A stretch of 61,558 nt of DNA, filler included, from Hausera hauseri (lineage: Eukaryota): assembly GCA_046269625.1 (NCBI GenBank). It is 12 parts of 12 records of this genome, joined end to end, with 100 filler letters (N's around TTAATTAATTAA, not from the genome) between each part and the next. Parts side by side here need not be neighbours in the genome. Positions count along the whole stretch, not along the records: positions 40,052 to 44,635 come from JBJURY010517904.1; positions 44,736 to 50,185 come from JBJURY010253069.1; 10 more parts are not named here. One strand, given 5' to 3'. Below, piece after piece: positions 14,498 to 61,558 of this stretch; within the stretch, counting starts at the first letter, position 1, and the number at the start of each line of letters is the position of its first letter. Made by a program: the position numbers and the translations under genes. The notes beneath the pieces are model-generated. The model worked only from the letters and a program-made list of their open reading frames with translations, had not been told where the DNA came from and did not search any database.

Positions 14498-14533
14498 GAG
14501 CATTCTTATAACTTTATAGTATTTTCAAATACA

Positions 14534-14538
14534 AAGGA
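14534..14538 (+). promoter_or_regulatory. Shine-Dalgarno site for folBK
   Basis: AAGGA 8 nt upstream of ATG 14547. Confidence 0.7.
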
Positions 14539-14546
14539 AAGATATT

Positions 14547-22240: not shown

Positions 22241-22241
22241 A

Positions 22242-27560: not shown

Positions 27561-27577
27561 GACAACATATAATAATC

Positions 27578-28312: not shown

Positions 28313-28903
28313 CTTAAAACAAATAGTAAGAGACATGAAAAATATAATGCTAATTAATGCTACGTATGAAAAAACGTTTTGCCATCGAAGTCTAGATAAC
28401 GCAATTGGAGCTTTTAAATGTCACTCAGTTTTGCATTTTTCAAGACCCTCCCTGTTTCGTATAAGAACCTTGAATTATGATAACATTTTAATATTCAAAT
28501 AATAGTGTTTCCTCGATACTCTGCCAAAATAAAAAATATCCGTCTAAAATGTAATGTGTAGTCTGTGATTACTCAAATGCATTGTTAAAATTTATAAATG
28601 AAAAAATACGCGATTGTTAATTAAATTAATACACGAACGTTCAAGAAATAATTATTACTTGAGGGTTAAAATAACATTAGATTAAGAGATGGAATGGGTA
28701 TTTTATTATGGACCAAAATCCCTAAAAGTAGTATTATCCATCGTATAGATTATAAGACTTTTAAATAAAAATATTGTACTTGCTCAAAAAATTACTTTGT
28801 TTTTTTTAATTGGCAATTTATCAAAACACTAAAATTTCATTGCATTTTACACGAATTTCAAGCGAATTTGGTACAAAGATAAAAATGTGGAATTTAAAGC
28901 AAC

Positions 28904-29940: not shown

Positions 29941-30678
29941 NNNNNNNNNNNNNNNNNNNNNNNNNNNNNNNNNNNNNNNNNNNNTTAATTAATTAANNNN
30001 NNNNNNNNNNNNNNNNNNNNNNNNNNNNNNNNNNNNNNNNTCATTACCTAGTACCACGGTGTGCAGGTTTAACTGTACGATGTAATAACGATATTCAAAC
30101 CGTAAGTTCTGAAACAATTGTATTTTATGCACGTGAAACATGTACAACAAACGAATAACATCACATCTGTTCCTTTAAACAAACAACACACATTTTCAAA
30201 ACATACAAGCAACAACCATTAGCTTTCGTCAACTGAAAATACACCGAATGCGTTTCAAAGACTACAAGTTAACAGCGCCGAAATGCCACACAAACAGCAA
30301 CCGGAGAACCGATATTTCACGAAGATAATTCAAAGGTTGGAAGTTATCTAATAATAAACTTATACTCCAGTTTTACCACGCCCATCAAACGACATGATGT
30401 CGACATTTCTTGTGTCATTTTTTACTTCCGTAATCCAGAATACACAAACATTCTGGTTTGCTGTGTATATTGACCTAAGAGAAGCTGTGATTCTACTAAA
30501 GTTTATCGACTATAACCTTCTGATGAAAGTATAAAAATGACATCTTGGAGGCACGAAATTATTGACTGAGTTTCACGCTCACTGGATGGAATTTAAATGT
30601 GATTTATAGCAGAATAATGCAAGAAGAAACAAAAGAATTATCATGTTACTAATGGATTCTGACCAGTCTTATTAACTC

Positions 30679-32603
30679 ATGTCAGGCAAAATTATCATTG
30701 CCGTTCATCATAAACAGTTAACTAGCATCCCACTATGCTGTGACTGTTGGAGTCTAGTTGGCGAACAGCATTTGCATGGGAGTTTCCAACATGTCTTGAA
30801 ACATGCAGGAAGTAAATTCAGAAGTTGGGACTTGAGTGTCATTCCGCAAACGACAGAGAAATTTTTAACCATGCGGACAAATATACAATGTTCTGGTAAA
30901 AAGTCTGTGTATATTAGATTTCTCGACTCGACATTATTAAGGGAAAAGGGATTTTTCCATATACTGCAGCCAAATCTTTCACCGACTTGCAATCAATTAA
31001 GGACTTACCAGTAAAATGGGATGGTGTTAGTGACAGTTATTATGAGGAAGCACAATTGGTTTGGTCAAAATACAGTTGCAACTGCCTGTTAGATTATATG
31101 TTGGTGTATATGAAGCTCGACGTCTACTTGTTAGGTGATGTCTTTGAGCGGTTTAGAAAGGAGGTTAAGTTGCAAGATGGATTAGAAGCCGCTAACTTTG
31201 TCTCAATTCCAGGTTTAAGTTGGGCAACAGCATTAAAAACCAGTCCTTGTAAGATTGAGCTTATCCAAGATCCTGAGATTTATCAGTTCTTTCAGTCAGG
31301 TATTCGCGGTGGCATTACTTTTGTAAATAAGCAGAGGATTGTCTCTGATGAAAGCACCATTCTTTTGTATATAGATGTAAATAATTTATATGGCTGGGCT
31401 TTATCACAACCTCTGCCATTTGCGAATCTGACTTGGATATACGATGAGGACGTCTTGACCAGTCTGATCCAACAATTACCTTACATTGACTGTGTTAAAG
31501 AAAAACGAGGCTTAGTCTTTGAAGTTGACTTGAGTATTCCAGCAGACAAACATGATAAGTTGGACCAGTTGCCACTAGCCCCAATCAACCATTGTCCACC
31601 CGGTTCAAAAGTTAAGAAATTGTTACTGACACATAAGCGTAAATCTAACTATGTTGTTCACTATCGGCTCTTACAATTGTACATAGAATTAGGCGCTGTA
31701 GTTGAAAAGGTTCATCGGGATGTTGAGTTTGACCAAGGTTATGTCTTTAAAGATTACATCGATCTAAACACTGCTAAGAGGGCTGCAGCAAAACATCCTT
31801 TTGAGAAAGACTTCTTTAAGCTTAAGAACAATAGCTTATATGGTAAGACAGTCGAAAACTTCTTAAAAAGATCCAACAGGAGACTATGTAACAATGCTAA
31901 AAAGCTTGTGACATATGCTAGTAAGGCCCAATTTAAAGAGATTATTATAATAGGCGATGATCTTGTTGCTGTTCTCCTTGATAAAGATATGGTCACATTA
32001 GATAGACCCTCTTACATTGGACAGGCTGTACTTGATCTTTCCAAGTTGAGAATGTATGAATTGAATTATATAGAATTAGAGTCATATAGACATAAGTTCA
32101 ATTGTGAACTTAATATTTTTGCTGGTGACACTGACAGTTTCTTTCTTGAATGTCGTGGAGTTGATCTGAGGTCTCAACTTTTACAGGCAATGACAGCAAA
32201 CGAGCAGTTGGACACTTCTAACTATGATGCTACAGACCCTCTTTATTCTACCCGTTTCGCATCTGTAATTGGAAAATTTAAGGATGAAAGTAAGGGTAGT
32301 GCAGAATACGAAGAAGCCATTTTCCTAAGACCGAAATCGTATGCCCTCAAAACCCAAACGAAACCAGTGCTGAAATGTAAGGGCATCAATCTAAAACAAA
32401 CCGACTTGCATTTTGACAACTACTTGCAAGCATATGAAAATGGATGTGGGACAATTGTCGATCAAGAACGGATTGGGACAAAGAACCATCAACTGATGAC
32501 GATCAGTACCAAAAAGAAAGCACTAGATCCATTTGACGACAAACGACACTGGATATCAAAAAACAAAAGTGTCGCATATGGACATTATTGTGTAAATATT
32601 TGA
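30679..32603 (+). CDS. Protein-primed DNA polymerase B (Polinton/Maverick type); polymerase core intact, 5' part frameshifted or deleted
   Basis: YIDVNNLYGWALSQPLP, KLKNNSLYGKT, GDTDSF, KFKDE, DDKR. Exonuclease remnants IRFLDS and KGFF in an upstream frame. Confidence 0.92.
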
Positions 32604-35605: not shown

Positions 35606-38471
35606 CTATGTGTCTAAGGACCCTCTTGGCAGATAAAGATGTCTAATTTGCTGAAAAATTGTTAAGACTGTCTGTGGTTTGAAAACTAGATTGTCGTGTA
35701 CTGCTTTGTTTCTGCATGTCCAAATGAGTGTTCTGTACTGGGAGAGCAGTGAGATTAAGAGTGTCTCTGTGTCTTTGGATGTTTTGGGTATCTTGTTTAA
35801 CATTATAGCTAGGTAGATGTCTATTGTTTGTTTGCTTTGTTTTTCTAGTATGTTTTGTAATGCCATTCTAGTTGGTTTTATTATTTCGCAGTCTATGAAT
35901 AAGTGAAATTCACATTCTTGTATACGTCTGTGACATAACTGGCAGGGGATGTAACTGTTTTTTTCAGCTTGGCTAGTTTCTCTGTTGTGGGAGTTATTCC
36001 AAAAAATGACCCTGAAAGTGATTTTCTTCCCTTTAGCTGTAATGACCGGATTATGTAGGTGTGTAAAGGTGTCGGTGTAGTCTGTAATCAAATACTGATA
36101 CCCTCGTTCGATCCTTAAATGTAATGGAGGCGCTTGTACCTTAACTAGATGTTTGTATATAGTATTTGCTTTTTTATAAATAGTGTTTCGTGTCCCGTAA
36201 TTGCCTGTATGTAGAATGGTGTCAGTGTTCCAAAGTAGTGTGGGATTGCATTGTTTAGTTTCGTCAGTCTTGTTAATTCCAGTCCGATGTGATAGTTTGC
36301 CAGTGTAAGCTGTTCTGGCTGTTTTATTATGCTACTTACGTGATTTAAATAAGTCAAAATGAGTTTAAAAAAAAAACAAAAAATGAGTTAAAAAGAGTCT
36401 TACCAGTAGACAATAAACAGACACTACATTACGACCACGAGGTTTTCATCGGGTTCAAAAACATACAGGACGCGGCGAACAGCAACTAGCACAACTACAT
36501 CGAATAAGAAATGAAAGATAGAGAATTACATGGTGTAAGAAGAAGTGAGTAAGAAGTAAGTCCTAGTATCCATGGAGCAGGCACGATTGGCCGTAATGAG
36601 GATGTCATTGACCCCAGAGTGGTTGGGGCCATTGAAGTGATCCGCGACAGCACCTGATCCACGCCGGTTGATGTTCAGCCATTACTTATTTTGCGTGCTT
36701 GGATTTTTGTTTTTATGTCTTGAAGAGCTATCCATCCTTGTCTCTTGTCTTGTATTAGGGTTTTATGTTGAATGCCGTGTATGGTGTGTCTAAAGATGAA
36801 GTGTCTAATGAGTTTGGTTATTTCCTTCATCGTCTGTTGCGGGGGTTCCCTAACTGTGGCTACGTAGATTAGTTTCGGGATTATATATGTGTTTACCACT
36901 AAGCTTCTACCAAATATAGTTGTTGTTTTGTATTTGTATCTATCTAGCATGCATGCGATTCTCTCAACTAGATTTTGCCATGTAGATTTGTGTATTCGGT
37001 TTGGGTGGGCCGGGAAAGTTATTCCATATATTTTTATGCTGTTGGTCGGTGTTAACCCGAAAGGGAAATCGGCTTTATTTTTCCATTTCCCGATTCCCAT
37101 TATGAAGGATTTTTGCACGTTTAATTTGGAACCGCTACCTTCCCCAAATTCCGAGAAAGTATTCAGAATTTGTTTAATGGACTGTTCATTTGGCGGGAAG
37201 AAAGTGGTGTCGTCTGCATATGCACGCAGTTTTTGTTCACCTTTCCCTTGTATGAACAGGCCTTTGATACTTTCGTCCTGTCTAATTTTCTCTAGAAGTG
37301 GTTCAAGGGCTAGGACGTAGAGTAGAGGGGATAGGGGACAGCCCTGCCTGACAGATCTGGTTAACCTGAAAGTCTCTGTAAATGAATGATTTACCAAGAC
37401 CTTGCTCTCGGGTTTAGTGTAGAGAATCTTTATCCAGTCTCTGAAATAATCTCCCATGTTACAGTGTAACAATGTTTTATGGAGATATGAGTGTGAGATT
37501 CTGTCAAAGGCTTTCTCCTGATCTAAAGAAAGGATCGATGACTGACAGTTTTTATGGTGTGCGTAGTGTATGATATCTCGTATGAAATGTGTGTGGCTGT
37601 GAATGCTCCTGTTTGTCACACTACATTGTTGGTCTTCGTGTATGAGTTTGGACATGAAAGGTTTGAGCTTGTTTGTTAATGTTTTGGTTAAGATTTTGTA
37701 GTCCGTGTTTAGTAATGATATTGGCCTGTAGTTTTTGAGTTGTGTCCTGTCTGATTTGTCTTTAGGTATAAGTGTGATGTACGACAGATTAAAGCTAGAT
37801 GGGAGTTCTTTTCTTTGAAAGGATTCAGAAAATACCTTCAAAAGGAAGGGTCCCAACATTGGAAAGAAATGTTTGTAGAATTCTGCCGTAAGTCCGTCTG
37901 GTCCTGGTGATTTGTTGTTTTGCATTTCATTTGCTGCTAGTGTTATGTCTTTTAATGTCATATCTGTATTAAGAGCCTGTTTGTCTTCATCTTTTAGTCG
38001 TTTCGTGTATTTCATGAAACTGTCTTGTATGTGAGTCTGGATTCTTTCTTCGGTGTACAGTTGTCTATAATAGTTTTCAAAAGCCTGTGTTATATTGTGT
38101 GGTTCTGTCTGTATATTCCCCTGGGTGTCTACTATTTGTACTATCTGTTTGTTGCGTTGTACGTTTTGTTCTATTGCCATGTATTGCTTACTGGGTATTT
38201 CTTGTGTGATTGTGTTTAACCTAGTGCGTAAGAGTGCCCCTTGGAATCTGTGTTGTTTATGTTGTTCGAGTTCATCTTGTAATGTGAGCAACTGTGGTGC
38301 GTTCTTGTCTGTTTGTTTCGTCAGTTTAATTGCTTCTTCTATTATACTTTCTTCCTCTAGTCTCTCCCTATGAATTATGGCTGCTATGAGTTTGGTTCTC
38401 TCGCGTATTGTATTTTTCAGCATTTCCCAGTGTTTGTCTATGTGTTCATAGGGTATACCTAATGCAAGCAA
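35606..38471 (-). mobile_element. 5'-truncated non-LTR retrotransposon (L1/Tx1-like) ORF2: RT plus C-terminal zinc finger, interrupted at ~36355-36685
   Basis: KSPGPDGLTAEFY, NYRPISLLNTDYKIL, LDQEKAFDR, VRQGCPLSPLLY, YADD, and CQLC..HLFIDC. Confidence 0.93.
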
Positions 38472-40051
38472 TGGAGACGACGAATGAATTCAGCCAGAAT
38501 TATTGTTTTATATATCAATAAGTATGAAGGACCGAAATAAATCTTGTTATATTCTTAATAATAATTGCGAGTTAAATGATTAAAAAGTGCATTAAATTTT
38601 CCTCATTCTCTATAAGATTATAATGTCTTTTTAGGTTACGAAGAGGAAACATTATAATCATACTTAGAAAATTAAAAAGCTGAATAAATAGTAATATTTA
38701 TATTAAGACTCATTTTTTTCAAAACATATAAGCTATTTCCCTTGAATGGTTTTGACACCGTTAACTCCCTTAAAACGTATTGAATTTAAAGCAAGGGGAC
38801 GTGACAAGAATGCCCAAAGTGAATACAGCTGGATCTAACAGAACATAATGACTGGTCTATTTTGTAACAAACAATGACTGACGTACAGCGTAAATCCTTA
38901 TTTTTTAAAAATATAATCTTTATTTATCATCCAATTTTACACCATAAGAGATACATTTTTTTCCCAAACATATATTGACACTTTTTGTCTGCTTATCAGT
39001 TGCATGCAGCCTTAGAGAAGGACTATTGAAAGGGGTTTTTACATTTATGTGGATATTTTGGGATTTTGACCTTCGTTTGGTCATTTTGACATGGGTAAAG
39101 ACTTGACAATATAAAATGAGGGATATAAACAGGGTAGAACCTGTTTGAGACTTGCAGAAAAGTAAGAAATTTTTACATAAACCTGGTCCGTGAAGAGAAA
39201 GGAGATAATTATGTTGCATCGTATGGGGAGGATTACAGCCAGTTACATGGCACATACAAATTATTAGCGTCAGTCGAGGGGGGTAATTGAAATAGACTAA
39301 CATATGGGGAGGAACATAAGACCATGTAAAGGAGAGTATTATCATAAAAAATGAAATCCATTTACGACGTCCATACAAAACAGAAAAAAAAATTGTGTAC
39401 TGTAGATAAATAGAAAAATTACAAATAGTGTATATTATGTAGTAGTTATATAAAAACATTTCAAGCAATTTATATTGTACAGTTTGTAATATATTGTTGT
39501 TGTTTGATCTCCTCATCGCCGAGTGTCAGCTCTTCTCGATGAGCCCTGATAAGGGCTGTAGTCCTAAGAAGGACTCACGAGTAGTTGAGTTGAGCATTCT
39601 TTCTGTCCCAGTGGAGTCTAGTAGGGTGGACCAAGATCCCCCAGGCTTTAGTGCTTAGCCTCCTAGAAGTGATCCACCTCTCAACTGGGTACCGTGGCGA
39701 TCCTTCCAACGTTGGCCAGAACTGCTTCTGTTTTCATGACTCATTACGAGCAAACGTTGAAAGGTCTTGGCCATTATGTTCGTTCCTGGCCCTGACGAGC
39801 TTGCTAAGCGATCTCAAATCTCAGCATTACTGGAATATATTAAAGCACCGATAATGTGTGTTACAGAGTATGATCATACACTTTGCTTTGTATTATGTAA
39901 TTACAAAAGGAACTTTGTGGCAAATGATAGACCAAGAACACTCACTCCAATNNNNNNNNNNNNNNNNNNNNNNNNNNNNNNNNNNNNNNNNNNNNTTAAT
40001 TAATTAANNNNNNNNNNNNNNNNNNNNNNNNNNNNNNNNNNNNNNNNNNNN

Positions 40052-42016
40052 GTTAGAATTTTCTTCATTTCATCAAAGGCCTTTTGTTCGACATTGGTCC
40101 ATTTCCATTTGATCCCTTTTTTAGTAAACGATACAAAGGTGCATTTATCTTTGCATTGTCCGGTACGTAAGTAGCATAATACCCACACAACCCCAACCAG
40201 TGTTTTAATTCCTTCCGATTCTGAGGTTCCATGCAATCTGATATCTTACTTACTAATGATTGATCCGGTTTCGACCCTCCTTCTCCAACTATATGTCCAA
40301 GGTACGATACAGCATTTTGGGCCCATTTACATTTCTTGCGATTCAGCTTCAATCCAGCTTGATCCAATCTCATGAGTGTACCTTCAATGTCTTTTAAATG
40401 ATCCTCTTCCGTTTTCAACGCAATCATGACGTCGTCTAAATAGGCAAATGCCTGCTGCAGTTTCATTAGCATTTTATTCATCATGCGGGTAAAGATGGCT
40501 GGTCCGGTAGTTATACAAATGGCATAATATTAAATTCGTATATACCATCGTGTGTATTGAACGCCGTTTTATAACGATCTTCCTCCTCTATTTATATTTT
40601 CCAATATCCAGATTGTAAATCGATGGTGGTAAACCATGTAGCTCCCGAAAGTCTATCCAAAGCTTCCTTTACCGATGGTAACGGGAAGAAGTCCTTCATA
40701 ATAAGTGTGTTTAATGCTCGATAGTCGATGCAAAATCGATGCTTGCTAGTACCTTTCTTCTTAACCATGAGTATAGGTGAATACCAAAATCTATAGCTTG
40801 GTCTAATTATGTCGGCCTTTCACATTCGTTCAACCTCCTTAGTTATTTCTGGCCTTAAGGGGTGTGGAGGAGGGTACCATTTGGGCATCTTTTGATCCTT
40901 TTAATCTATTTCGTCGTTGGAATTAGGCTTCTTCTTAAGTGGAATCGTGAGTCTTAGAGTTTTGGCTCGACCAATATTTTATTCATCTCTCGTGATAATC
41001 GAGCTATAGCGACAAAGTAATTCGTAGAATCGACAATATGATTCTGATAAAAATTTAGTCTCAACGTGCGGTAGAAAATCGGCACCCTTATATGGTTTCT
41101 CTTCGATGGTAATTAATGATACTCTATACGTATGTCTTAAAGTGGTATTGGCGTACAGTTTGGTTGGAGTGGGCGCATTATTCGCTATTCTGATTGGCAC
41201 GCGGCCTGTTGATACTCTTGTCAAAACATTTCTGAGCACGAGGTTTGGATCGAGCGATTCCCTCGGCTCGAAATAGATTGGCTGATCGTCATTTTGACGT
41301 ATCTGAGCATATATTAGGATTTCGGTTCTAGATGGTATGATTTCATCCACCGGAATCCACACTTCTCCGAATTTTCTGTCTTTAGTGGTTTTAAATCCTT
41401 TTATTGGGCCAAGTTCTACCAACTTGCCTGCATTAAAATCAATTGCTATATTAGGTAGTTGCCTCAATAAATCACACCCTAACACTACATCATCCTTTAG
41501 TTGCTCCATTACTGAGAATTCATGATGAAAAATTTGTCCCATTATGTGAATTTCTGGTTTCCAACGGAATTTACTTTTCGACGATTGTCCGAATGCTCCG
41601 ATGCTTCCTGGGTATGTCGTAGGAGGTGGATGTAATTGTTTTCGTAAGAATTGGGGTATCGAATCATATTTTATCAACGATATTTTGGATCCTGTATCTA
41701 TTAGTGCATAAACCTCCCAATCGTCAAATTGAATCTTAGCGAAGGGCCTGCATTCAATTACCATACCGTAATAGTTTAATGCTATCTTGGGTTGTCGTAT
41801 GGTAGACACTTTATAACCATTGATGGTTAATTCAGTGGTTCCAACTGGCTGTTCGACTAATTGTCTTAATTCTCCCGTTGGGTATAGTTCGTTATTTGTA
41901 CCGTTCGCATTTTCTACTCCTTGGCTTCTAACTGGCGGCTGTACATCTTGATTTAGGAAATTTCGTGTCTCATAATTTCTGGTAAATATTAACTGCATTT
42001 CATTTGGTTTTGGCAC
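40052..42016 (-). mobile_element. Gypsy aspartic protease and reverse transcriptase (decayed)
   Basis: ALIDTGSKISLI, VVLGCDLL, RFCIDYRALN, DLQSGYW, YLDDVMI, YLGHIV. Nearly collinear with 44736-45780. Confidence 0.93.
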
Positions 42017-42030
42017 TCTAGGCGAGTAAA

Positions 42031-44500
42031 TTATACCATGGCCGTCTCCTGCTGGTCGACGATGTGGAGCAGACGTCTTTCCGTTTCATGGATCTTACGC
42101 AATATCCCGGAGCGTTTGGTTCCTTCGTAAGGATCTTCTAGATTGAATGGCTTCTGATAGAGGTCTGTCTGGCACGAACTCATAGATTGTTTCTCACAAT
42201 TTTCATATATAGGTGCCGTTTGCGGCAGTACCGGTAATGGTAGTTTCATAACAGAGTAATTTTTGTGCCTATTTGGCCTGAAAATGACATCTCCCTTAGG
42301 CTCGTCATCATCAGAATTATTTCTTCGCGTCTTATTTTCTACGAATTTTTGCCTGTAATCAAATATGCGTCTTTTACGTTTTCGATTATGGTAGCCAACA
42401 TGTCGTTTTACCTCTGTTTTCCATTTACTCTGTTTATAAGCCTTTAAGAATTTGCCAAAAGGAGTAATAATGGTCGTTAAAATTTTGCACAAAAATCTTG
42501 TCAAGGTAAATATCTCGTATCCATTTATAACGGCTTGAATTATTGCTTTTATCAGTTGCATTAAGAAATATATCTCTAGAAATCCTGACACTGTTTGTCT
42601 GAATATCAGAAAACTTCCCCAAATTTTGTACAATATTGATGTAGTTACCTTCTTGTAGTAGACAACACCAAGTAATGACTCCCATTTTGCGTGGTAACGT
42701 GAGTCCTCTAGTACTTTATGCATCGCTCTATTCAATTCATGTGTGCGCTGTCGAGGAAAAGCGAGAAATTGTCTAAACGCCTCTACTTCTTTTGGTCGGT
42801 AAATACCCTTCGCAGCTGTATCTTGAAACTTATCATTGGTTATTCCTTTTATCAGATTTGTACCTGTTAGCTTGGTAGGTGGTGCAATAATACCACCATT
42901 GGGTAAACTTACCCAGTCGGTTCCGCTGCGTCTAAACATCGGTTCTCCTAAACTAGTTTTACAGTCTCTCAAAATGGTTGGTTGAGTGGCGTTCGTCAAC
43001 AATACTCTGGTAATTGGTGTTGCTAACCTCGGTATGTCTTGATATATTACCGGAAGCTCTTGTATACACCTCTTCTCTTCCACATTAATCGGTACATCTT
43101 TCTTCTCGCACTCATACGTCAATAACACTTCTCCGGTTACTCGTCCAAAAACACCTTCCTTCATCGGAATTATTGGTGATGCCAACTCGGGGTTTGCGTA
43201 TATTAGAGCTAATTTAGTTCTCATGATTTCCAAATCCAATTTATAATCGTTTGTTATCATTTTACGATATAATTCGGCTATTCCGGCTTGTCCCTTATAG
43301 TGGAAATAGTCGTCTCTGTTCTTCAGATAGTCTTCAATCCGGATGACCTGAGTCTCGAGTTTGAACGTTCTGGCGTTTATTTCTGTCTCGGCTATAAAAA
43401 AATGCTTTGTAGTTGGTGGCATACATTACCACGTCGCATCTAGAGAGCATATCTTTCTTTATAAATTTTAATCCGTGATCATCAGAAATCAGTAATGTAG
43501 GTGTGGATTGTTCGGCCACATCCTCTCGCGTTTTAGTGTTAGTTTCCGGGCTACTTATGTATCGTTTTCCCGTTGTAACGTTGAATTTCAGTTCTTTAAT
43601 TCTAATAAAATTACAATCAGTCTTGGCTGGAGGTTCCCAGATTACTACAGAATTCAGGAATGGGCATGTGCCATCCTGAATATGGCATTTGTGGTTCTCG
43701 GTGTAAAGCTTAGTAACACTATGGAACATCACTTTCTGCATACGCATTTCAGTTTCGTAAAAATCAACCACTAGGACTTTCGGCTCTAATCCTTTTCCGG
43801 TATCGTATTCCACACCTTGGCAATGTCCGGTATGCATGTCTAGCCTTCCAGCCGCTATTTTGTATACTCTGATTATTTTCCCCTTCTGTATCTCTAGTTC
43901 CATGCCATCCCACTTTATTCGTCCCGTCTTTCTTGCTTGCTTACAATGTTGTCGTTCTAAATTCATCGGAATTGGTGGAGTCGTCGATTTGATTATTGAT
44001 GAGTGTCCATGTATCAGCCCACAATGGAAGATGCTGCGAGATCGTCGCAAAATACATTCTACCCCATATTATGCAATTAGTTCACGTTGTTGGTATAGTA
44101 CGTAACTTTTTTCTTTTGTTTCTAATTTGTGTGGTCTTGCGTCTTCACACATTTCCAAGTCCATTAGTGAGTAATTTTGTCCGAGTCTAAATTTGTCACA
44201 ATCGTATACCGTGACTGCACCCATTTGTTTTATCAACATCATCATGGTCAGAAAGTTTATTAGCCAATTCGATTCATTTCCCCTGCGATTTCCAGTTACA
44301 TTTCGTAACAATTCCCCGAACCTATTGTTATCGAAGAAGAATCCACACTGATGTTCTTTTTCTTTTTCGAATAACTTAGACCAGTTCACTTCTCGGAGTA
44401 GCTTTCTGGCAGCCTTCCTTGCTAAGCTAGTAGCCTTGATGAACTCATTTTCTCGATTTGGATTGGTTTTAATGGCCAGGTAGAGCAGCACTTTTCTCAA
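42031..44500 (-). pseudogene. Chuvirus-like envelope glycoprotein (frameshifted over three ORFs) upstream of Gypsy pro-pol
   Basis: Signal WLINFLTMMMLIKQMGA then VYDC..YSLMDLEMC. FHCGLIHGHSS, C..ARKTG, AGRLD..GHCQG, GEVLLTYEC..CIQELPV..PITRVL, PMF, GIY..FPRQR, W-x2-F..LIKAII..INGY, then a basic tail. Order matches my recollection of Chuviridae-type G proteins. Confidence 0.8.
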
Positions 44501-44735
44501 TTTCTCTATAGTATTCTCTATATAATTTTCTCGATTATCATTTCATCACTCAAGGTGCTCTTGGCTAGTTTGCACCGGAGGCCTTTCATGGCCTTGGCGG
44601 CATTAAATATGGCCTTCTCTTTCTCATCTAACATANNNNNNNNNNNNNNNNNNNNNNNNNNNNNNNNNNNNNNNNNNNNTTAATTAATTAANNNNNNNNN
44701 NNNNNNNNNNNNNNNNNNNNNNNNNNNNNNNNNNN

Positions 44736-47557
44736 CGAATACCCCCCCCCACGTCGAAACAAAATTTTCACCGGAATCCTACTGCCGATTCTACAAATTA
44801 CTTTGTCGTTGTAGTTTGATTGTCGCGAAAGATGAAGGAGATATTGGCCGAGCGAAAACCTTAAGGCTTACAATTCCGCTTAAGAAGAAGCCTGGCTCAA
44901 ACGACGAAATAGACTTGGAAGATCAAAAGATGCCAAAATGGTACCCTCCACCACACTCGTTAAAGCCAGAGATAGCCAAAGAAGTTAAACGAATGTTAAA
45001 AGCTGACATAATAAGGCCGAGCTATAGATCTTGGTATTCACCTATACATATGGTTAAAAAGAAAGGTACCAGTAAGCACCGATTTTGTATCGACTATCGA
45101 GCATTAAATACACTCATGAATAAGGATTCTTTTCCGTTACCATCAGTAAAAAAAGCTTTGGACAGACTTTCGGGAGCTAAATGGTTTACTACACTCGATT
45201 TACAATCTGGATATTGGCAGGTAGAGATAGAAAAGGAAGATCGTTACAAAACAGCATTTAAGACACACGACGGTATATATGAATTCAATGTCATGCCTTT
45301 TGGAATTACTACTTGATCAGCTATCTTTACCCGCATGATGAACAAGATGCTAATGGGACTGGAACATGCGTTCACCTATTTAGATGACGTCATGGTTGCC
45401 TCGAAAACGGAAGACGAACATTTAAAAGATATTGAAGGTACACTCATGAGGCTAAAACAAGCTGGATTAAAACTGAATCCAAAGAAATGCAAATGGGCTC
45501 AAAATGCTTTATCTTACCTTGGACATATAGTCGGAGAAGGAGGATCGAAGCCGGATAAATCATTACTAAGTAAGATATCGGGTTGTATGGAACCTCAGAA
45601 TCAGAAGGAATTAAGACACTGGTTAGGTCTGTGTGGGTATTATGCTACTTACATACCGCACAACGTGAAGATAAACGCACCCTTGTATAGTTTATTGAAA
45701 AAGGAAATCAAATGGAAGCGGACCGATATCGAACAAAAGTCTTTCGATGAGATGAAGAAAATTTTGACTATTGAACCTGTTTTAAGATATCCTGATTTCA
45801 ACCTACCATTCATAATCAAAACGAATGCCAGTAAGGAAGGTAGCGGATATGAACTGGCTCAGAAACGAGAAGACGAGGAGTTAGAACACCCAATCGCATA
45901 TGGAGGGCGTTCTCTAAAGAAAGCTGAGAAGAACTATTCCGTAAAAGCACTGCTACATTTTAATTTATACGTCTATGGACAAAAGATCGTAATCGTTACT
46001 GATCATAAGGCAGTTACAACCTTAAAGGGTAGAGCAAATAATCCGACGTGTAGACTGAACAGATGGATAGACGAAATTTCACGTTATAATATTGAATTCC
46101 AATACAAGCCAGGAAATAAACACATCGATGCCGATGCATTATCGAGACTTAAAACTAAAACAAGCGCAGTTACTGTAATGAGGAAAGCACACCTCGAAGA
46201 CTTAGTAGAAAGACAGCGGACTCTCGTGCTAGATAAAGCACTAAAGATTGTTGACGAACAGAGAAAAGACAGGGTTATACAACAAATTATCAAGTTCGTT
46301 GATACCAACGTAACACCCAAGGATCACCAGTTACGGAAACACCTACGACGATATGGTCACAAATACTGCGTTGCTGGAGATTCGAACCACGAAAATATGT
46401 TATACTACGAACGAAAAGGACGAAAATTAGTCGTCATACCAAAGGGACTACGAGCAGAAGTACTCATAGCCGAGCATGATTCATACTTAGCCGGACACGT
46501 CGTGGAAAAAGACATTGGAAATAACATTAAATAAGTACTATTGGCCGATCATTTACATTGACGTGAGAAACTGGATAAATGCTTGTGAAGTGTGTGTGAC
46601 CAAGCAAAGAAAAGTGAAAACCTATGTCGCCGAGCTTAAACCTATCAACGTGCCTGATAGACCAACGCAAGCAATGTCTATGGATATTGTAGGACCACTG
46701 CCTACAACACACAAGAATAACAAATACATTTTGACCTGCGTAAACCGACTGACTCACTTCGTCGAACTTGTAGCGTTATTAGACCAAAAAGCCGAAATCT
46801 TGGCAGAAGCGGTAGTCCGGAAGATAATTTGCAGATATGGGCCACCCGAACAAAGTTTGACAGACAGAGGAAGAAACTTTACGAGCGAATTATTTGATAA
46901 AATTACCAAGATTTTCGAAATTGAACGACTAACTACTACAGCTTATTACCCTCAATGTAACGGAATGGTCGAGCGGATAAACGCGACCGTTATACGAATC
47001 TTATCGACAGTAGTCGCAAAGGACCAGAATCATTGGGATGAGTTCTTAGAAGGTACACAGTTTGCTATTAATACTACACCACATCCTGCGACAGGATTCA
47101 CTCCATTTTTTATGATGTACGGAAGAGAAGCTGTGCTTCCTACAGATTTAGGACTGATTCCATATACAACCCAAACGGAGGATTTAGAACCAAATTTTGT
47201 CGAAGTATTACAATCAAGAATGCAGAAGTGCTGGGAGATAGCCAAGGAATTATCTAGAGAATACCAGGAACAGTTCAAGAAGAAATACGGTAAGAAAGCT
47301 AAACCTCACGATTTAGAACCGGAAATTGGGTTTATGTACACCACCCAGTGGCAAAGAAAGGCACATCTCTTAAACTTACCAGAACAGGCAGAGGACCTTA
47401 TGAAGTTACTAAAATTACGCCGACCACAGTTTATATAAATAAAAACGGCAAGGAAGAGGTCGTATCAATTCAGAGAGTAATTAAAACGGAAATAAGACCA
47501 GGTAAACGCTATAATTTGCGTTCGAATAAAGTTAATAAGGAAAGGAAAACATCGTAA
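44736..47557 (+). mobile_element. Gypsy pol (RT, RNase H, integrase) with stops and frameshifts
   Basis: RFCIDYRALN, MPFG, YLDD, ADALSR, H-x4-GH..CEVC, MDIVGPLP, LTDRGRNF, PQCNGMVER, GPY. Confidence 0.95.
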
Positions 47558-48844
47558 ATCGTAACCAGACCGATATCATATGTACAAATAATTCTTGCCC
47601 CATCGTTAATCGCTTCTTATGTACCCAAGGTGACATCAATAACTAGAGCCGAAAAACTACGATAAGCAATGAAACGCAGGGATATCCAGAACATTCAATC
47701 ACTTAGAGTACACGATATGGATTGGAGCAAACCATGTGCGTGGTTCGAAGCAAGCGAACCCTTTCGGAGTTATGTGAAATTTCAAATAATATTTGTAACC
47801 GGAAACACGATGAGACCATGTGATTTTCCGTACGGACATCACAAAAGATGTTGTGATCTAAATTTTGGAAAAGCCTACGCATATCGATTTCAAATGTTTT
47901 ATTCTAATCAGTTTGGAGCTCAGGCATATATACTTTTAGAACTTGTAATAAGAATGCCCCAACAAAAGGAGGCAAATCAGGCCAAGACGGACGCAATAAT
48001 CCAAAATACTGACTCGTTTAAAAGACTCTTAGATTATAACATTATGGGAATTTACAAGGACTTAAAAAATCAGTGTATACAAATTGAGACCAAAATAGAG
48101 CTGCCTGGAGACCGACAAATTTCTGTCCGATTTATACCATTGAGGTCTTCCGTCCCTACTCCGGAATATTGTTATCTGGCCAGACGCCGACCTACTACGT
48201 GCTGTGTAATACAACTAGGACAGGATTATCAGTTACAATTGGACTTGTACAACACGTATCCCGGAGAATAAAGCACTTATTTAAGAAGATACCGTCCGAA
48301 AAACGGAATATGGAAACTTCCATTCCCAACCACTACGAGAATACCATCCATTGCTCCAAGAACGACTCTCGCTACTACGATCATTACTTCGGACGAAATG
48401 CCAGGAAGCATACCAGTTAAGATTTTGGCAAAAAGCGATAGAATTCTATTTTACGCTGAAGAGACGTTTGATCAAGACGTCAAAATTGAATGTCACACTT
48501 TGCACACCTACCAAGTTGTGATCCTGAAAAGGAACAGTCAGGAAATTGAATGCAGGTCATTACGACCGCAACATGACTATATAGTCAGAATTACCGCAAA
48601 TGGTAAGAACCCTAAAACTTATACAGTGCGGACTCTAGACAACAAGGTAGAAGTAATGCAGTATAGAGATCTTAGTACGCAAAATGTGTTTCCCACGAAA
48701 AGTTCTACTGAACCGAATAACTTACCGATAATAGCTATATTTAGTTTGTTAATTTTCGTTCTTATCATATTAACAGCGATGATTTTTCTAGTTTCCAAAA
48801 ATTATAAGAAACGCTGTAAAATCGAATGGGAGATAAATGGGTAA
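47558..48844 (+). pseudogene. Post-integrase type I membrane protein with three FN3-like Cys-rich domains
   Basis: ISYVQIILAPSLIAS signal. PCAW..CDF..RCCDLNFG..Y, QCIQ..YC..TCC..Y, IECRSLRPQHDYIVRI. TM IIAIFSLLIFVLIILTAMIFLV followed by KNYKKR. Confidence 0.75.
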
Positions 48845-48865
48845 AAAGGCACCGAGAAGGACCTT

Positions 48866-48990
48866 ATGATAGCATAACCTGACAACTACAGATCGGGTTA
48901 TCCTATCATCAGACAGAGAAAATGTTTTGTTTCTAAACGATGATCTGTCTTAGGATTGGCCTTTATTTTTATTTCAGCAGAGTAAGTATG
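48866..48990 (+). promoter_or_regulatory. Conserved RNA hairpin, 3' splice-acceptor-like site and ATG
   Basis: ATGATAGCATAACCTGA-10nt-TCGGGTTATCCTATCAT (48866-48909), then CTTTATTTTTATTTCAG|CAGA GTAAGT ATG. Homolog at 58010-58134. Confidence 0.65.
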
Positions 48991-50090
48991 GCCGAGAAGG
49001 CGAAGGATCCAACAGTCAGTTCCAATCACGATATGGACGATTTCTTGCAGCAGCACGTCACTGTTCTCAAACCATTATCCAAGAGTTTATATTGACAAAT
49101 CGAAGAAAATTGGAAAACCCAAACCTATGTAGAATTCAATCAAGAGAGTAAAATACCAATCGGACTAAAATGGGGCTTAGAAGAATATCGATTGGTCCGA
49201 TTATACGCCATGAGAAGTCTCAAGGATGCGCTAGCATATCTTTTGAGAGAGCTGATCCCATATAAGCCGACACATCAGCAATTGTACATACATGTCGCGG
49301 ATGGAGAAATTCAGTACAGGATCGTAGGACAATCCTGGAGTACACAAAAAGAACAACAATGGAAGTTTAGTACTTATGATCTATGTTGCTATAGCCTCAT
49401 GAATTATGCTCTGAAATTTACAATTGCAGACCTTCAGACCAAAATCATGATCGAGATGACGTGGCGAACAGAGGTAATGAAGCCGCTACCACCGTTATTA
49501 TATATACAGAAACCATCGGAAGATGAAATAGAGCAAAACGGGGAATCTTACAGATTAATCCAGGATGGCCAAAATACTCGGATATTGGCCGTAAACTTTG
49601 GAGAAAAGGATGACGGATGGTATGTTTCGATCGAGGTCTCTATAAGAAATACTAATGGAGAAGAAATCGTAAATAAAATAATCGCCCCTCGAGCTAGAGT
49701 AAAGGATGCTTTATCTGACGTTACAGGAATTACGAAAGTGCAGCTCGAAAAAGAAAAGGATTTCTTAGAGATCCAAGAAGACATAAGCCATTGCTTATAT
49801 AGGTATATTGTTACCGGATTCCGAGTGTACGAAGCCTTGGAACGATTAGGAATTAGACAAGAATACATAGTCGGAATTCGAGAATTGAGCCGCAACCCAG
49901 CGGTGGTGAGCAAGTAGAAAATACGCTAATGCAAAAAAGAGGTTGTCTACTTCCCTCCTCAGCCTCCCGCGAATCACAATTCAAAATGATGTTAGAGGCC
50001 ATGAATGGCGAACGGCTTAAATTTCCCAAACTAATGACAGCAAGCCAACGAACTAGATTTATAAAGGACACCTATGACCCTTTACGATGA
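48988..50090 (+). pseudogene. Gypsy accessory ORF with degenerate DEDDh (REX4/ISG20-like) exonuclease domain
   Basis: EVSIRNTNGEEIVNKIIAPRARVKDALSDVTGIT..DFLEIQEDI..IVTG..GIREL, homologous to the C-terminal domain of the 5844-9722 ORF. ATG 48988 is in frame with 49192; internal stops present. Confidence 0.65.
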
Positions 50091-50285
50091 GATCACAAAT
50101 GGAAACCTAGAAGTCCCTTACAGAATGCGATATCTGACAACAACCCCAAGGCACTGATGCAAAAATTCCGAAAAGGGTTTAGTGANNNNNNNNNNNNNNN
50201 NNNNNNNNNNNNNNNNNNNNNNNNNNNNNTTAATTAATTAANNNNNNNNNNNNNNNNNNNNNNNNNNNNNNNNNNNNNNNNNNNN

Positions 50286-55870: not shown

Positions 55871-56671
55871 CAATGTCTTCAAATTGTTCTACAGCTATTT
55901 CATCTACAAGAGGTTCATCGGCTATTTTGTCAGTAGTATCAATAAATTGTTCATCCGCAACATCAACTATTTTGCCACTGTTAAGTTGTTCAGCAACTGT
56001 GTCATTTGGGTCAACAATTACTACTTTGCCATTGTTGTCAACATCTATTCGAATACAGCACGATTTGTATTCCATTGTAAAAATAAACTGTTTCCAACTA
56101 TCCAGTGTATTTATACTAAATTTTACTCTAACAAATCAGTCTGATTGGTTGGAAGTTTATATAAATAGTGAATATGACTGAAATTTTAAAATGTTAGTAA
56201 TAATTATAAATCACACAGATGCAAAATATGTTCAATATATTGATTTTAANNNNNNNNNNNNNNNNNNNNNNNNNNNNNNNNNNNNNNNNNNNNTTAATTA
56301 ATTAANNNNNNNNNNNNNNNNNNNNNNNNNNNNNNNNNNNNNNNNNNNNCATAATTTGTACGTTGTAATGCGTCTAGTCTTTCTCGCAAATCAGTTTTTG
56401 AATCATTTATGGGATTTGTCCGTGTATTGGTTTGGAAATTCTGTTCCAAGTAATAAGCAGCGGGTGGTTTCATTTCAACTACTCGATTATTTTTACCACG
56501 TGAAAAGTATTTTAACTGCGATTCCTCTGCTCGGTATACTGAGCATGTCGTTTTTCCATTAATTAACGTCCATTGTTCCAAACAATATCGACTATTTGCT
56601 AAGATCACATAACCTTGCCACAAATTGGCTTCACATACGGGGCAAATATTATCGGTATCATTATCTAAATC

Positions 56672-59600
56672 TCAGTCTGTCACACAAGTTATGTCTTGAA
56701 ACAGTAATCCCTTCGGGTTCTTGTATATGTATCCATGTAGTTGTTTTTGATTGGGATCTATTGAACTTTTTCGTGGGTCTCCATTAACAGCTATTAAAGT
56801 CCACTTAATCACGGGTTGAGCATCTAAGTCTGGAATTTTCATTCTCTTATATTGTTTTTTCATTTCTATTTTGGTTTGGTTGTCGGCTGGCACGGTTATT
56901 TTTTTAGTTCCTGTTTTTGACTTGAATACCGGTGTCAAATATCTTCCTAGCTTTGGGTCGATCCGCGCATAGGCATTTTCATGCATTTCCAATACTGGCA
57001 CTGTGTAGATATAAAATACCGCTTCTTTGTTTTTTCCATGACTTACATATTCTGCCATTATTAGGATGCTAGGTTGTTCTTCTGTGTCCTTGTGGTCTTA
57101 TGTGGTTATTATATCCTTGTCTTGTCTCCTTTTCAAAACATTCACTTCCGTAAGGATTTGTTCAACATGGGTTGATCCTTTTTCTTTCTTCTTAAGAAAT
57201 CCGAATATTGGTTTCTTTTTCTTTTCTGGAGATGGGTCTCTCAATTTAGGCTTTTGGTTGATGTTCCTTGACAGCTTTCTATTTCCTTTGTTTTTGTAGG
57301 CACCTGGAATCCATAAGTAGGGTTACTGGATTTGTGTTTGGTAGTATCTTCTTGATTTGAAACTGAAACCGTAATCTGCATGTTATTGTCCCTTTCGGAT
57401 TCAATCATTCGCATCGGCGAATACGGATAAAATTGCTTCCGGTGGAGGGAATTCAATTCTGTCGGGTTTGTACTGCTTTGAAGGTTATTTTTGGGGTTTA
57501 GGGCTAACCATTCCTGTTCCCATTTGATCGTGGCGTAAATATTGCGCAAGTATTGCGTTCTTTTGGTAGCAAATAGCTGTCGATTGATTCTGTATTGGGT
57601 TCCGATCATGATTTCTATTATCGCCTTGAAGTGCGTTTCCATGGTCATGGGAACGAACCGGTTTACATTATCCATCTTCTCTCTAATCTTAGGATGAGCC
57701 CAGAATTCTCGTATTCCCGCTATATTTTTGAGCTTTATTTAATTTACATTTTAGTAGATTCCGTAATTTGTACGGCCGAGCATCTTCATTGTTTCGCATG
57801 GCATACAACAGTATTATTCGATTTTCTTCTATGATTCCCTTTAAACTGTTTCGTATCTCATCTACTTTATTGTATTCCGTTGATAATTTGTTCTGTAATT
57901 TTAAGTGTATTTGCCTGTCGATGGCCTTAGAATGTGGAGTTATAACTGTCGCGTTTGTTTGCAAAAATCCATCGATGTCCAAGTAGGTGTTGTTACTGGC
58001 TTCCATAATACTCACCGTTCTGAAATAAAATAAAATAAGGTTAGTCCTAAGACAGATCTTTGTTTAATTAAAAAACAATTTCACTGTCTGATGACAGAAT
58101 AACCTGATCTGTAATTGTCAGGTTATTTTGTCATACAAATCACTTTGGTAAACCACCCTTATTCCTCTATTACGATTTCTGCGCTGCTTTTTGCAATTTT
58201 TGGCAACTATATAAAGGGACGCAATTAATATTAACAAGACAAACGCTGATACTCCGATGGTCGATATAATAGATAGGGTTGTTAATTCAAATGTTTTCTG
58301 TGTTGTCAGATCTGTAGTAATTGTTTTCTATGTCTTGACCTTTTTGTGAATCTGGGTAAATTCTTTCTGCTAAAGTACGTAAAGTGATTGTCTGATTTTG
58401 CTTTCCTGCTGCATTAATTTGTATTATGTATTCTGTCTGAGGTTTTAATGCGTTACATTCTACTTGTCGTGTATTCTGTATAAGTTTTACTTTTTGCCCG
58501 TTATATAAGGTTTGACAGTTTATTTCTACATCGTAGTTTAGTACTACCTCAACAAAGAACACTTCTATCCTGATGGACCGAATATCTGATAGGTATGTCT
58601 TCAATTTTTATTTTAGATATATTATTTATCGTGATAATTCGAGCGGTCGACTTTTTAGTCGAGGTTTTCATTGAAATTTTCCAAATTCTATATTCTGGGT
58701 AGTAGATTCGTAATTGTATGCTTGGTTGATTAGGCCGTATTTCGTATAAGTCAAACGTTATTTTAAATTCTTGGTTTACGGGTATTTTACAACACTGATG
58801 TTGTACACCAGCACGAATGGAACAATATTCTATTTTTGGAGATGGTCCTATTACTGCCTCGAACACGATACTGATTTCCCGATTGACGGTTAGTTCGTCC
58901 GATTATTTACTTGAATACATTGTCTTATTCACAGAGATTTTCTGGATATTTTCTTTTAGCAGTCTTATATCTGGATCAGTGGATCTCAACATTTCGTTCA
59001 GTTTTGCTCCATAATGCCTATTCCAAAGAGGAATAACTAGTTGAATTTGTGGTTTTATTTCATAAATTTTAGATAATTTTGGTAGGTACATTCGATAGGT
59101 CAGATTGTAAGTATGTCCGAAATCTATGTCACAACATTGCGTACGTTCTCGGAACTCAAAGTCACAATTCTTCGTTTCTTTTGTTATTACATCATCTAAA
59201 ACAATTTCGATCCCTCCAGAATTTCGGTGTGGTTTTCGCGTTTTAAATACGACGCATGTGCAGTTAGGTGAGTAATAGTGTATCCTTATTTCTTGTAATT
59301 TTCTTATATCCTCTTGTCCTTCATTTCCTTTGACTGTTCCATTCTTTTCCGTTTTAACAACCTCCAATCTCGTTTTATTGTTGTACCAGTACCACCATTT
59401 AGCTTGTGTTCTCGAAATATAGGAGGTAATTAGCGATAGTGCTAGAACTATTTGGACGTACGATATTGGTCTATTAATTATGGAAGACGTTTTTGTTTTC
59501 TTTTTATCTTGATGCGAGTTAGATCGCAAATTGTAACATCTTTCAAGCTTTATTTTTGTTTTAACAACTCTCTGAATTGATACTACTTCTTCTCTGCCAT

Positions 59601-61558
59601 TTTTGTTAATGTATACCGTAGTTGGTGTGATTCGGATAACTTCATAATGTCCTCCTCCGGTACGAGTAAGCTTTAATGACGTACCTTTCTTTGCGACTGG
59701 GTAGTGTACATAGACCCAGTTTCCTTTTTCTAAATCATGAAGTTTGGCCTTTCTATCGTATTGTTTCTTAAACTGCTCTTGATACTCAAGAGTGAGCGTC
59801 TTAGCTATATCCCAACATTTTGTAATCTGATTTGTAAAACCCGCGAAATTCGGTTCTAAATCTTCTGGACTTGCGTGATATGGAGTCATCCCTAAGTCCG
59901 TAGGTAAAATTGCTTCGCGTCCATACATCATAAAAATGGTGTAAATCCTGTGGCGGGGTGCGGGGTAGTATTGATAACTAATTGTGTTCCTTCTAAAAAT
60001 TCATCCCATTCTTTTTGATCTTTCGCTATTACGGTTGATAAGACACGTATAACTGTGGCATTCATACGTTCGACCATCCCATTGCACTGAGGGTGATATG
60101 CAGTGGTAGTCAATCGTTTGATTTCGAAAATTTTAGAAATTTTGTCACATAATTCGCTTGTAAAGTTTCTTTCTCTATCGGTTAGTATTTGATCGGGCGA
60201 TCCATATCTGCAAATGATTTTCATTACTACTGCGTCAGCTAGAGTTTCCGCCTTCTGATCAATTAATGCGATTAATTCCACAAAATGTATTAAACGATCT
60301 GCACATGTCAAAATATATTTGTTATTTTTATGAGTTGTAGGTAAGTGTCCTACTATATCCATAGACATAGCGTGCATGGGTCTATCTGGTACGTAAATTG
60401 GTTTTAATTCTGCCATACAGTTTTTCACTTTCTTTGTTTTATTGCGCAGACTTCACAAGCGTCCACCCAATTCTTCACATCGATATAAACGCTTGGCCAG
60501 TAATACTTGTTCAAAATCCTTTCTAATGTTTTTTCCACAATATATGTCCGGCCAAATGTGAATCGTGTTCGGCCATTAGTACTTCTGTCCGTAATCCTTT
60601 TGGGATAACTACCAATTTTCGTCCCTTTCGTTCGTAATATCGAATATTATCTGGATTCGATGCATAATTTTTTTTGTCCGCGTCTCTGTAAGTGTTTCTT
60701 TAGTTGACGTCCTTTTGGCATCTCATCTTGCTTGGCAAATTTGATTATTTGTTGGATAACCTTATCCTTAGCTTATTCTGAAAAAATTTTGATTGTTTTA
60801 TTTGGTGTTAAGGTCTGCTGTCGCTCGACTAATTCTTTGAGCTAAGCCTTCTTCATGGTCGTAATCGTACTTGTTTTTTGTTTTGAGTCTTGATAAAGCG
60901 TCTGCATCTACATGTTTACTTCCGGGTTTATATTGAAATTCGATAGTGTACCGTGAAATTTCCTCAATCCATCGATTCAGTCTACACGTGGGTTATTATC
61001 CCATCCCTTTAACGTGGTAACAGCTTTATGATCGCTAACTATAATAATTGTCTGTCCGTAGGCATAGACATTAAAATGTCTCAAGGCTTCTTTCACGGCT
61101 AATGTCTCTAATTCAGTGACTGAATAGTTTTTCTCAGCTTTCTTAAGCGATCGTCCTCCGTAGGCAATTGAATGTTCTAATTTTTCGTCTTCTAGTTTTT
61201 GAGCTAATTCGTAACCAATTCCTTCCTTACTTGCGCCTGTTTTAATTATAAATGGTAAATTGAAATCCGGGTATCTTAACACTGGTTCACGCCTTAAAAT
61301 TTTCTTCATTTCGTCGAATGCTTTCTGTTTAACATCGGTCCATTTCCATTTGATGCCTTTTTTCAATAGCCGATATAACGGCGCGTTTATTTTCGAATTT
61401 TCTGGTACGTAGGTGGCGTAATATCCGCATAAGCCTAACCAATGTCTTAATTCTTTCTGATTCTGTGGCTCCATACAATCCGATATTTTATTTAATAAAG
61501 ATTTGTCTGGCTTTGATCCTCCTTCTCCAACTATATGTCCAAGATAAGATACGGCATT
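56672..61558 (-). mobile_element. Decayed Gypsy copy: RT end, RNase H, integrase, FN3-like/TM protein and downstream ORF(s) without recognisable exonuclease
   Basis: Same pol family as 44736-47557. ISYVQIVLALSLITS, CDFEFRERTQCCDIDFG, VECNALKPQTEYIIQI, TM at ~58200-58280. Downstream ORFs 57689-58015, 57241-57675 and 56672-57058. Confidence 0.9.
58010..58134 (-). promoter_or_regulatory. Conserved RNA hairpin, branch point and 3' splice-acceptor-like site
   Basis: ATGACAAAATAACCTGA-10nt-TCAGGTTATTCTGTCAT (58134-58091), then GACTAAC CTTATTTTATTTTATTTCAG|AACG GTGAGT ATT ATG. Confidence 0.7.

Follow-up and report, generated by a model that had tools for sequence, protein, structure and literature searches.

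To what kind of element do two pieces of a 61,558-nucleotide (nt) stretch of Hausera hauseri DNA (assembly GCA_046269625.1) belong? The stretch, referred to below at its full length as the window, is made of 12 contigs with N spacers between. Contig A (40052–44635, read on the minus strand) encodes a viral-type fusion glycoprotein (G) and part of a retroelement polymerase region (pol). Contig B (44736–50185, plus strand) encodes further parts of pol, a second membrane protein and an accessory open reading frame (ORF). A sequence-only reading had assembled the two into one complex enveloped retroelement. We conclude that A and B are probably decayed pieces, from sister subfamilies, of a giant Ty3/gypsy element resembling the planarian element Burro. 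In such an element G, pol and the second membrane protein would be parts of one polyprotein, and the accessory ORF would be expressed from spliced RNA. This conclusion is supported by the gene order, by the decay of both copies and by intact, single-frame relatives to which each of the modules is homologous.

Results

Gene order and kinship of the copies

The following features were assigned to A and B, in element order.

44302–44635, minus strand: helical region preceding G; the contig stops here, short of Gag
42031–44301, minus strand: class III-type fusion glycoprotein G with leader, ectodomain, transmembrane segment (TM) and cytoplasmic tail (PF24664)
40979–42085, minus strand: aspartic protease (PR; DTG at 41698; PF00077, E 2.2e-5), followed by a beta-rich spacer
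40052–41071, minus strand: reverse transcriptase (RT) of copy A, interrupted by stops and one frame change and overlapping copy B (PF00078)
44736–46534, plus strand: RT (YLDD at 45377) and RNase H (RH) of copy B (PF00078, PF17917, PF17919)
46491–47557, plus strand: integrase (IN) with H2C2 finger, core and GPY motif, and two frame changes (PF17921, PF00665, weak PF18697)
47558–48844, plus strand: second membrane cassette, continuing the frame of the IN C-terminus (hydropathy; profile of relatives' repeats)
48866–48987, plus strand: conserved non-coding element with two hairpins, a pyrimidine tract, acceptor-like TTTCAG and donor-like GTAAGT
48988–50185, plus strand: accessory ORF with a double-stranded beta-helix (DSBH) domain of AlkB/cupin fold and an ISG20/REX4-type pseudo-exonuclease (profiles of relatives)

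Every gene of A and B holds a stop or a frame change, so both copies are dead. The close similarity of about 1 kb that had been noted between them is an overlap of 1017 bp at 83.5% identity (window 40057–41071 against 44747–45763), and the motifs quoted for it occur in both copies. The tiled length of about 9 kb was also reproduced (4584 + 5450 − 1017 = about 9.0 kb). Across 313 codons of the overlap, the synonymous divergence (dS) was 0.80 and the ratio of non-synonymous to synonymous divergence (dN/dS) was 0.093; third codon positions accounted for 100 of the 156 differences. These values indicate that A and B split while active and that the tiling is a chimera of sister subfamilies. Both would thus be decayed members of lineages that diverged as working elements. 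The view that A and B are one family holds, but they do not look like two decayed copies of a single master.

Three further contigs in the window are related: C (24685–29940, plus strand), D (56350–61558, minus strand) and E (4129–9722). C and D are two further subfamilies with 71–72% nt identity to B. A and B grouped together in an RT tree (100/100) from which the 67-amino-acid (aa) row of D was excluded. Over 67 shared codons, the proportion of synonymous differences was 0.35 for A–B, 0.84 for A–D and 0.71 for B–D. A search of sequencing runs listed a single match, run X1, and no RNA run. Contigs from X1 aligned to both copies in large numbers (14307 to B and 14471 to A, at a threshold of at least 80%) and covered all bins (30 in B). 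Hence, A and B belong to a repeat family.

The sequences in the trees were unnamed relatives plus a single partial gypsy RT, without named outgroups. In them B, C and D sat on a long branch of their own, and E fell with metagenome polyproteins (100/100). The IN of E has 52–55% identity to those polyproteins and grouped with them, not with B. A and B could on this basis be independent of Burro. They would then be a separate GAG-ENV-POL lineage, in which recombination with co-resident elements of Burro-like type, E for instance, brought in the accessory ORF and the 3′ cassette. We regard this as unlikely. The position of E apart from B, C and D is in its favour, as is the non-monophyly of GAG-ENV-POL elements given in the available part of PMC13524379; no Bcl-2-like or ankyrin cargo was seen in A. 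However, long branches are expected where outgroups are lacking, and G, PR, RT, IN, the repeat near the membrane and both accessory domains match the same relatives in the same order.

G and the second cassette in intact relatives

A search with the post-IN part of E returned 40 proteins, all matching its last third. Most were unnamed proteins of 350–680 aa that share an N-domain and an RNase_T-like domain. A six-sequence alignment of these proteins led to three metagenome loci. Two of the three fetched loci, L001 and L003, hold a single open frame, of 3012 and 3207 aa, and the third was too short to show its architecture. Both frames encode, in order, G (PF24664), two or three proteases, RT, RH, IN, a leader, repeats and a TM. 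A PF00929 ORF follows.

With the G region of L003 as query, 12 proteins (2099–4057 aa) were recovered, one of which (P0049) is the full L001 frame. G was present in all 12 and RT-RH-IN lay downstream of it in nine. After IN, seven of these nine contain two hydrophobic stretches, one contains a single stretch and one contains none. G is in frame upstream of PR in L001, in L003 and in 9/12 relatives. Other domains were distributed more sparsely: zf-CCHC in 6/12, Ty3_capsid in 1/12, and ubiquitin-like, ankyrin and C2H2 domains in 2/12 each. The best 60 of 99 PDB matches to a five-sequence profile of the region before G were all Bcl-xL or Bcl-2 (best E 4.7e-5). A Bcl-2-like profile made from the relatives gave no match at E ≤ 1 in A, where only about 330 bp precede the G leader.

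The arrangement of G, pol and second membrane protein in one element is thus natural among the relatives. Whether a single element holds both membrane proteins had been posed as the deciding point; L001 and L003 do, although the A/B subfamily itself has not supplied such a sequence. That the A subfamily also carried the 3′ cassette is most simply inferred, because A groups with B and because the 3′ ectodomain is present in each of B, C, D and E.

It is improbable, in our estimate, that the tiling merges two different elements, one (A) with G only and the other (B) with the second membrane protein only, as an alternative envelope or a cargo replacing G. In its favour, A and B represent distinct lineages (dS 0.80), and no contig spans both modules. 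Cargo is also highly variable in the group (ankyrin, C2H2, extra proteases), and P0058 has G and no post-IN cassette. Against this, G and the cassette occur together in L001, L003 and 7/9 proteins with G and pol, and the contigs that carry the cassette (B, C, D and E) bracket A. We therefore retain a single element with both membrane proteins.

Fusion glycoprotein and pol

G of copy A matches PF24664 (Monjiviricetes_fusion, Pfam) in two pieces, with E 4.9e-10 and 2.1e-34, over profile positions 74–612 of 653. It is a mononegavirus/chuvirus-type protein encoded upstream of PR-RT (herpes simplex virus (HSV)/gB-type, with a chuvirus-like ENV before POL). A hydrophobic leader lies near 44280–44210 and the TM at about 42582–42526. 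The gene is damaged by one internal stop (44069–44071) and one frame change (about 43334–43425). Identity to G of the intact polyproteins is 27–33%.

The Ty3/gypsy order PR-RT-RH-IN is divided between the copies, with PR-RT on A and RT-RH-IN on B, and is complete in L001 and L003. RT-RH of B has one internal stop (45314–45316). The GPY motif follows the IN core within the ORF at 47303–47557. We take the YxDD motif of RT and the GPY/F motif of IN to be marks of Ty3/gypsy elements. The assignment of pol to a Metaviridae type is supported by the gene order, YLDD and the GPY motif. The beta-rich spacer after PR had no Pfam match and is labelled by position only (Burro has a dUTPase-like domain there).

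Some searches returned nothing. A search for longer proteins with window G retained none of 2805 candidates. The equivalent search with B RT-RH gave 0/5088 at E ≤ 1e-60, too strict a threshold. Scans of viral contigs with G, IN, L001 RT and the RT alignment gave no match. L001 and L003, as fetched, contain no long direct repeat, and A and B end inside coding sequence.

A second membrane cassette after integrase

The frame that holds the end of IN in B continues to 48844, with three internal stops between 47303 and 48844. After IN it encodes, in order, a hydrophobic leader, two Cys-Cys beta repeats, one fibronectin type III (FN3)-like repeat (48389–48643), a TM (48728–48793; hydropathy 3.18) and a short tail. 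From hydropathy we infer the same topology as for G: leader, lumenal ectodomain, TM and short cytosolic tail.

Of 1314 window pieces, only those of B (E 3.2e-10), D (E 5.6e-9) and E (E 2e-4) were matched below E 0.2 by a profile of 12 repeats taken from the relatives alone. The 3′ ectodomain, including the two distal Cys-Cys repeats, is common to B, C, D and the distant E. IN and the cassette share one frame in B, D, E and the relatives. The earlier claim that two membrane proteins flank pol is upheld, but they are best read as in-frame cassettes of a polyprotein and not as products of separate genes.

The FN3 label was examined by profile and by fold. There was no Pfam match to FN3 in the cassette. 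With an eight-sequence profile of the membrane-proximal repeat, all 12 PDB matches at E ≤ 10 contained FN3 (best E 0.011); they were fibronectin, tenascin, FNDC5, NCAM2 or designed FN3 proteins. All ten named matches of an Atlas search fell in one clan. The membrane-proximal repeat is thus likely to be FN3-like. The two distal repeats matched no PDB entry significantly, nor did profile comparison relate them significantly to the FN3-like repeat. A single-sequence fold of the E ectodomain had a predicted local distance difference test score (pLDDT) of 33 and gave no usable model. Most likely, the FN3/TM protein is a second surface protein, serving as an attachment protein or a receptor mimic.

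Could the 3′ part of B simply be host DNA, or a captured piece of a host gene with no role in the element? The FN3/TM protein resembles host receptors, and intron-less pieces of a host gene adjoin another gypsy element in the window. We nevertheless think this very improbable. The in-frame relatives largely refute it, the cassette being joined to IN in the contigs and relatives named above. C and D ectodomains also differ with a dN/dS of 0.33, and run X1 contigs cover all 30 bins of B in many variants. A cassette belonging to the element remains our interpretation.

Three observations concern this part of the polyprotein. D has a tail near 56600 that we presume, from its motif, to be RING-like. 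L003 has a third leader–FN3-like–TM cassette mid-polyprotein, between protease domains (4141–4800). P0051–P0055 and P0058 have an extra protease-like domain after IN, ahead of the position of the second membrane cassette.

The conserved element and a putative splice acceptor

Between the cassette and the accessory ORF, B and D share 79% identity over 48866–48987, despite near-saturated synonymous sites. Both form the same two hairpins (z −3.7 in B and −4.8 in D). Of 23 hairpin pairs, 22 are kept in both, one by a compensatory double change. The element ends with a pyrimidine tract, TTTCAG, 4 nt, a donor-like GT(A/G)AGT and the ATG in both contigs. In B, TTTCAG is at 48972–48977, GTAAGT at 48982–48987 and the ATG at 48988. 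The count of the acceptor–donor pattern was 2 against 0.03, the two cases not being independent since the pattern was drawn from the related copies B and D. Rfam returned only a sub-threshold miRNA match (E 0.71).

The acceptor–donor pattern is absent from L001–L003. L001 and L003 lack the hairpin sequence and the donor, and have a T-rich AG 0–2 nt before the accessory ATG. An acceptor-like AG thus lies 0–13 nt before this ATG in B, D, L001 and L003. From these sites, the accessory ORF is likely to be expressed from spliced RNA.

We also considered the conserved element as the start of a long terminal repeat (LTR). This was set aside; the element ends at the ATG, and no purine run of at least 13 precedes it. 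A different motif, TGTAAATAAA...CAGTAGTA, is common to L001 (9059–9090) and L003 (9642–9672) just after the polyprotein stop. It holds a poly(A)-signal-like AATAAA, 140–310 nt before an acceptor, and may reflect either an operon-like layout or an LTR start. E has a T-rich AG acceptor-like tract near 7350, inside its long frame.

The accessory ORF

The accessory ORF of B has one internal stop (49093–49095) and a frame change near 49910, and is cut by the contig end. Profiles made from the relatives match it at E 3.7e-6 and 5.7e-22. D retains remains of the ORF (E 2e-4) beside its conserved hairpin element. In E (5844–9722, minus strand) a 1292-aa open frame encodes IN, a leader, three repeats, a TM and the DSBH-pseudo-exonuclease. 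About 25 unnamed members of the DSBH-ISG20 family were found.

The family profile matches ISG20L2 (E 1e-27), ISG20 and SDN1. The catalytic set (D-E-D-H-D) is intact in 14/26 relatives; B keeps 0/3 assessable positions and E 0/5. The description of a pseudo-exonuclease after the hairpin and acceptor was therefore correct, the enzyme type being ISG20/REX4. An AlphaFold model of the E accessory protein, made with a 31-sequence alignment, had two domains and a pLDDT of 88.6. Residues 1–141 resemble ALKBH6 (Z 11.7, root-mean-square deviation (rmsd) 3.4, 138 aligned) and residues 176–312 resemble ISG20 (Z 11.4, rmsd 3.0, 130 aligned). In the alignment of the DSBH domain a His is conserved in 25/28 rows and a Glu/Asp in 30/31. 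We do not claim demethylase activity because the HxD/E motif is not conserved. Most likely, the DSBH-ISG20-like product binds RNA ends, and would thereby shield or process the RNA of the element or weaken silencing by the host. In the A/B lineage it would act through binding alone.

Other parts of the window

The contig at 50286–56249 carries another, different gypsy element with Gag-like, PR and RT parts. Upstream of it lie broken MIF4G pieces without introns (PF02854), which we take to be UPF2-like. The contig at 9823–15417 holds, at 13814–15359 on the plus strand, what are presumably bacterial-looking folate genes (folP, folB-folK); they would come from either a symbiont or a contaminant in the assembly. 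The pieces at 20504–22330, 29485–32603, 35606–38489 and 1–4028 we take to be Polinton-like DNA polymerase B pieces, non-LTR RT and simple tandem repeat.

Discussion

How would such an element work? We propose that G, PR-RT-RH-IN and the second membrane protein are translated as one polyprotein. Internal hydrophobic leaders would direct the G and FN3-like ectodomains into the lumen of the endoplasmic reticulum. Each TM would stop transfer, and Gag and PR-RT-IN would stay cytosolic. Signal peptidase and the element's own protease would release the pieces, with G as the fusogen. The acceptor before the last ATG would yield a subgenomic mRNA, by cis-splicing or by spliced-leader trans-splicing, and the hairpins and adjacent donor-like site may tune this splicing.

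Several results weigh against this interpretation. No single A/B-subfamily sequence spans G to FN3; run X1 consists of short contigs and, among the pieces listed, none spans A or B, which leaves the halves unlinked. The A/B branch is long, with 33–47% identity to the intact relatives in RT-RH and 38–41% in IN. With trees that lack named outgroups, common descent with Burro is a hypothesis. A Pfam scan of A and B, which are an incomplete element, found no ubiquitin-like or ankyrin/BIR domain; Gag and Bcl-2-like domains were not seen in A, which ends before Gag. The G tail and PR are in different frames in copy A. Support for FN3 is weak (best E 0.011; Atlas scores ≤0.85) and concerns one of three repeats. 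The hairpin covariation comes from two sequences, and 259 of 500 shuffles reach the same level. The accessory ORF of E is in frame with the TM, and therefore splicing is not obligatory. Finally, the fold that the DSBH domain matches is a broad one, with many cupins at Z 8–9, and the HxD/E string is in only 8/31 rows.

A wider proposal is possible, if somewhat doubtful. There might be a widespread clade of endogenous viruses of Burro-like type that enter cells with two glycoproteins, making a class III fusogen and a distinct FN3 attachment protein from one Gag-G-Pol-FN3 polyprotein. Such elements might use a conserved acceptor–4 nt–donor switch to express a so far undescribed DSBH-ISG20 RNA-defence protein, which would have become a pseudo-nuclease more than once.

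Few LTR retroelements are as complex as those of Burro type, which have been proposed to be proviruses and whose published annotation ends at integrase. A second in-frame membrane protein, if confirmed, would place a lumenal cassette on either side of pol within one polyprotein. The FN3/TM protein would be the first candidate attachment protein of a gypsy-type element. The DSBH-ISG20 family is small, folds well and is open to direct nuclease and RNA-binding tests.

Comparison with known systems

The nearest published layout is that of planarian Burro/GYPSM1. The available part of PMC6431247 describes Gag, ubiquitin-like and BCL2 domains, an in-frame mononegavirus-like env, PR, a dUTPase-like domain, RT, RH, IN and ankyrin cargo, in an internal region of up to 25 kb. 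In Burro, as in the relatives studied here, env lies between gag and pol as part of a single huge polyprotein. Burro accessory ORFs may be fused into the polyprotein, according to the same text, as occurs in contig E. The ubiquitin/SUMO-like, BCL2-like and ankyrin cargo of Burro was seen here in intact relatives only. None of it was seen in the window piece, whose likeness to Burro is one of layout. The available text on Burro contains no post-integrase signal-FN3-TM cassette, exonuclease/DSBH ORF or splice element.

The part of Chary and Hayashi (2026, PMC13524379) available to us reports gypsy elements of GAG-ENV-POL order whose ENV is chuvirus-like in Nematoda, Bryozoa and Platyhelminthes, and reports that they are not monophyletic. 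As in A, a chuvirus-like glycoprotein precedes PR-RT in these errantiviruses, whose pol is of Ty3/gypsy type. The 5′ half of our element, with G before pol, is already known from Burro and GAG-ENV-POL elements. The claim of an undescribed system is consequently not supported for the in-frame env with ubiquitin-like, BCL2 and ankyrin cargo, which is the published Burro layout (PMC6431247; see also PMC13524379, both as far as available). Our literature searches found no account of elements of this kind with an FN3/TM cassette after IN or with a DSBH-ISG20 ORF, though Grohme et al. (2018) or Repbase, GyDB and Dfam may already show them. These 3′ additions are apparently undescribed.

Accessory genes of related type occur in other retroelements. 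Bdelloid rotifer Juno and Vesta LTR elements encode a DEDDy exonuclease as ORF3, and other rotifer families have small TM-containing ORF3s (available part of PMC5408684). Juno and Vesta resemble the present element in having a DnaQ-like 3′–5′ exonuclease as a downstream accessory ORF. In that account, however, theirs is RNase D-like DEDDy and not of ISG20/REX4 type, is without a DSBH fusion, and belongs to elements with no env upstream of pol. Orchid Ty3/gypsy elements carry an AlkB/2-oxoglutarate-dependent dioxygenase (2-ODD) ORF, described in the available part of PMC9289625 as an active N6-methyladenosine (m6A) demethylase close to plant ALKB proteins. They too are large gypsy elements with an extra ORF of AlkB-type fold. 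The accessory ORF here differs from the orchid ORF, as given there, in its low identity (4–10%), the absence of a conserved HxD/E and the exonuclease fusion. For the C-terminal domain the best sequence-profile and structural match is the ISG20/ISG20L2/REX4 DEDDh group (PDB 1wlj, 7yw5). Unlike ISG20-type enzymes, the proteins of B and E lack the catalytic residues, and a DSBH domain precedes the exonuclease fold.

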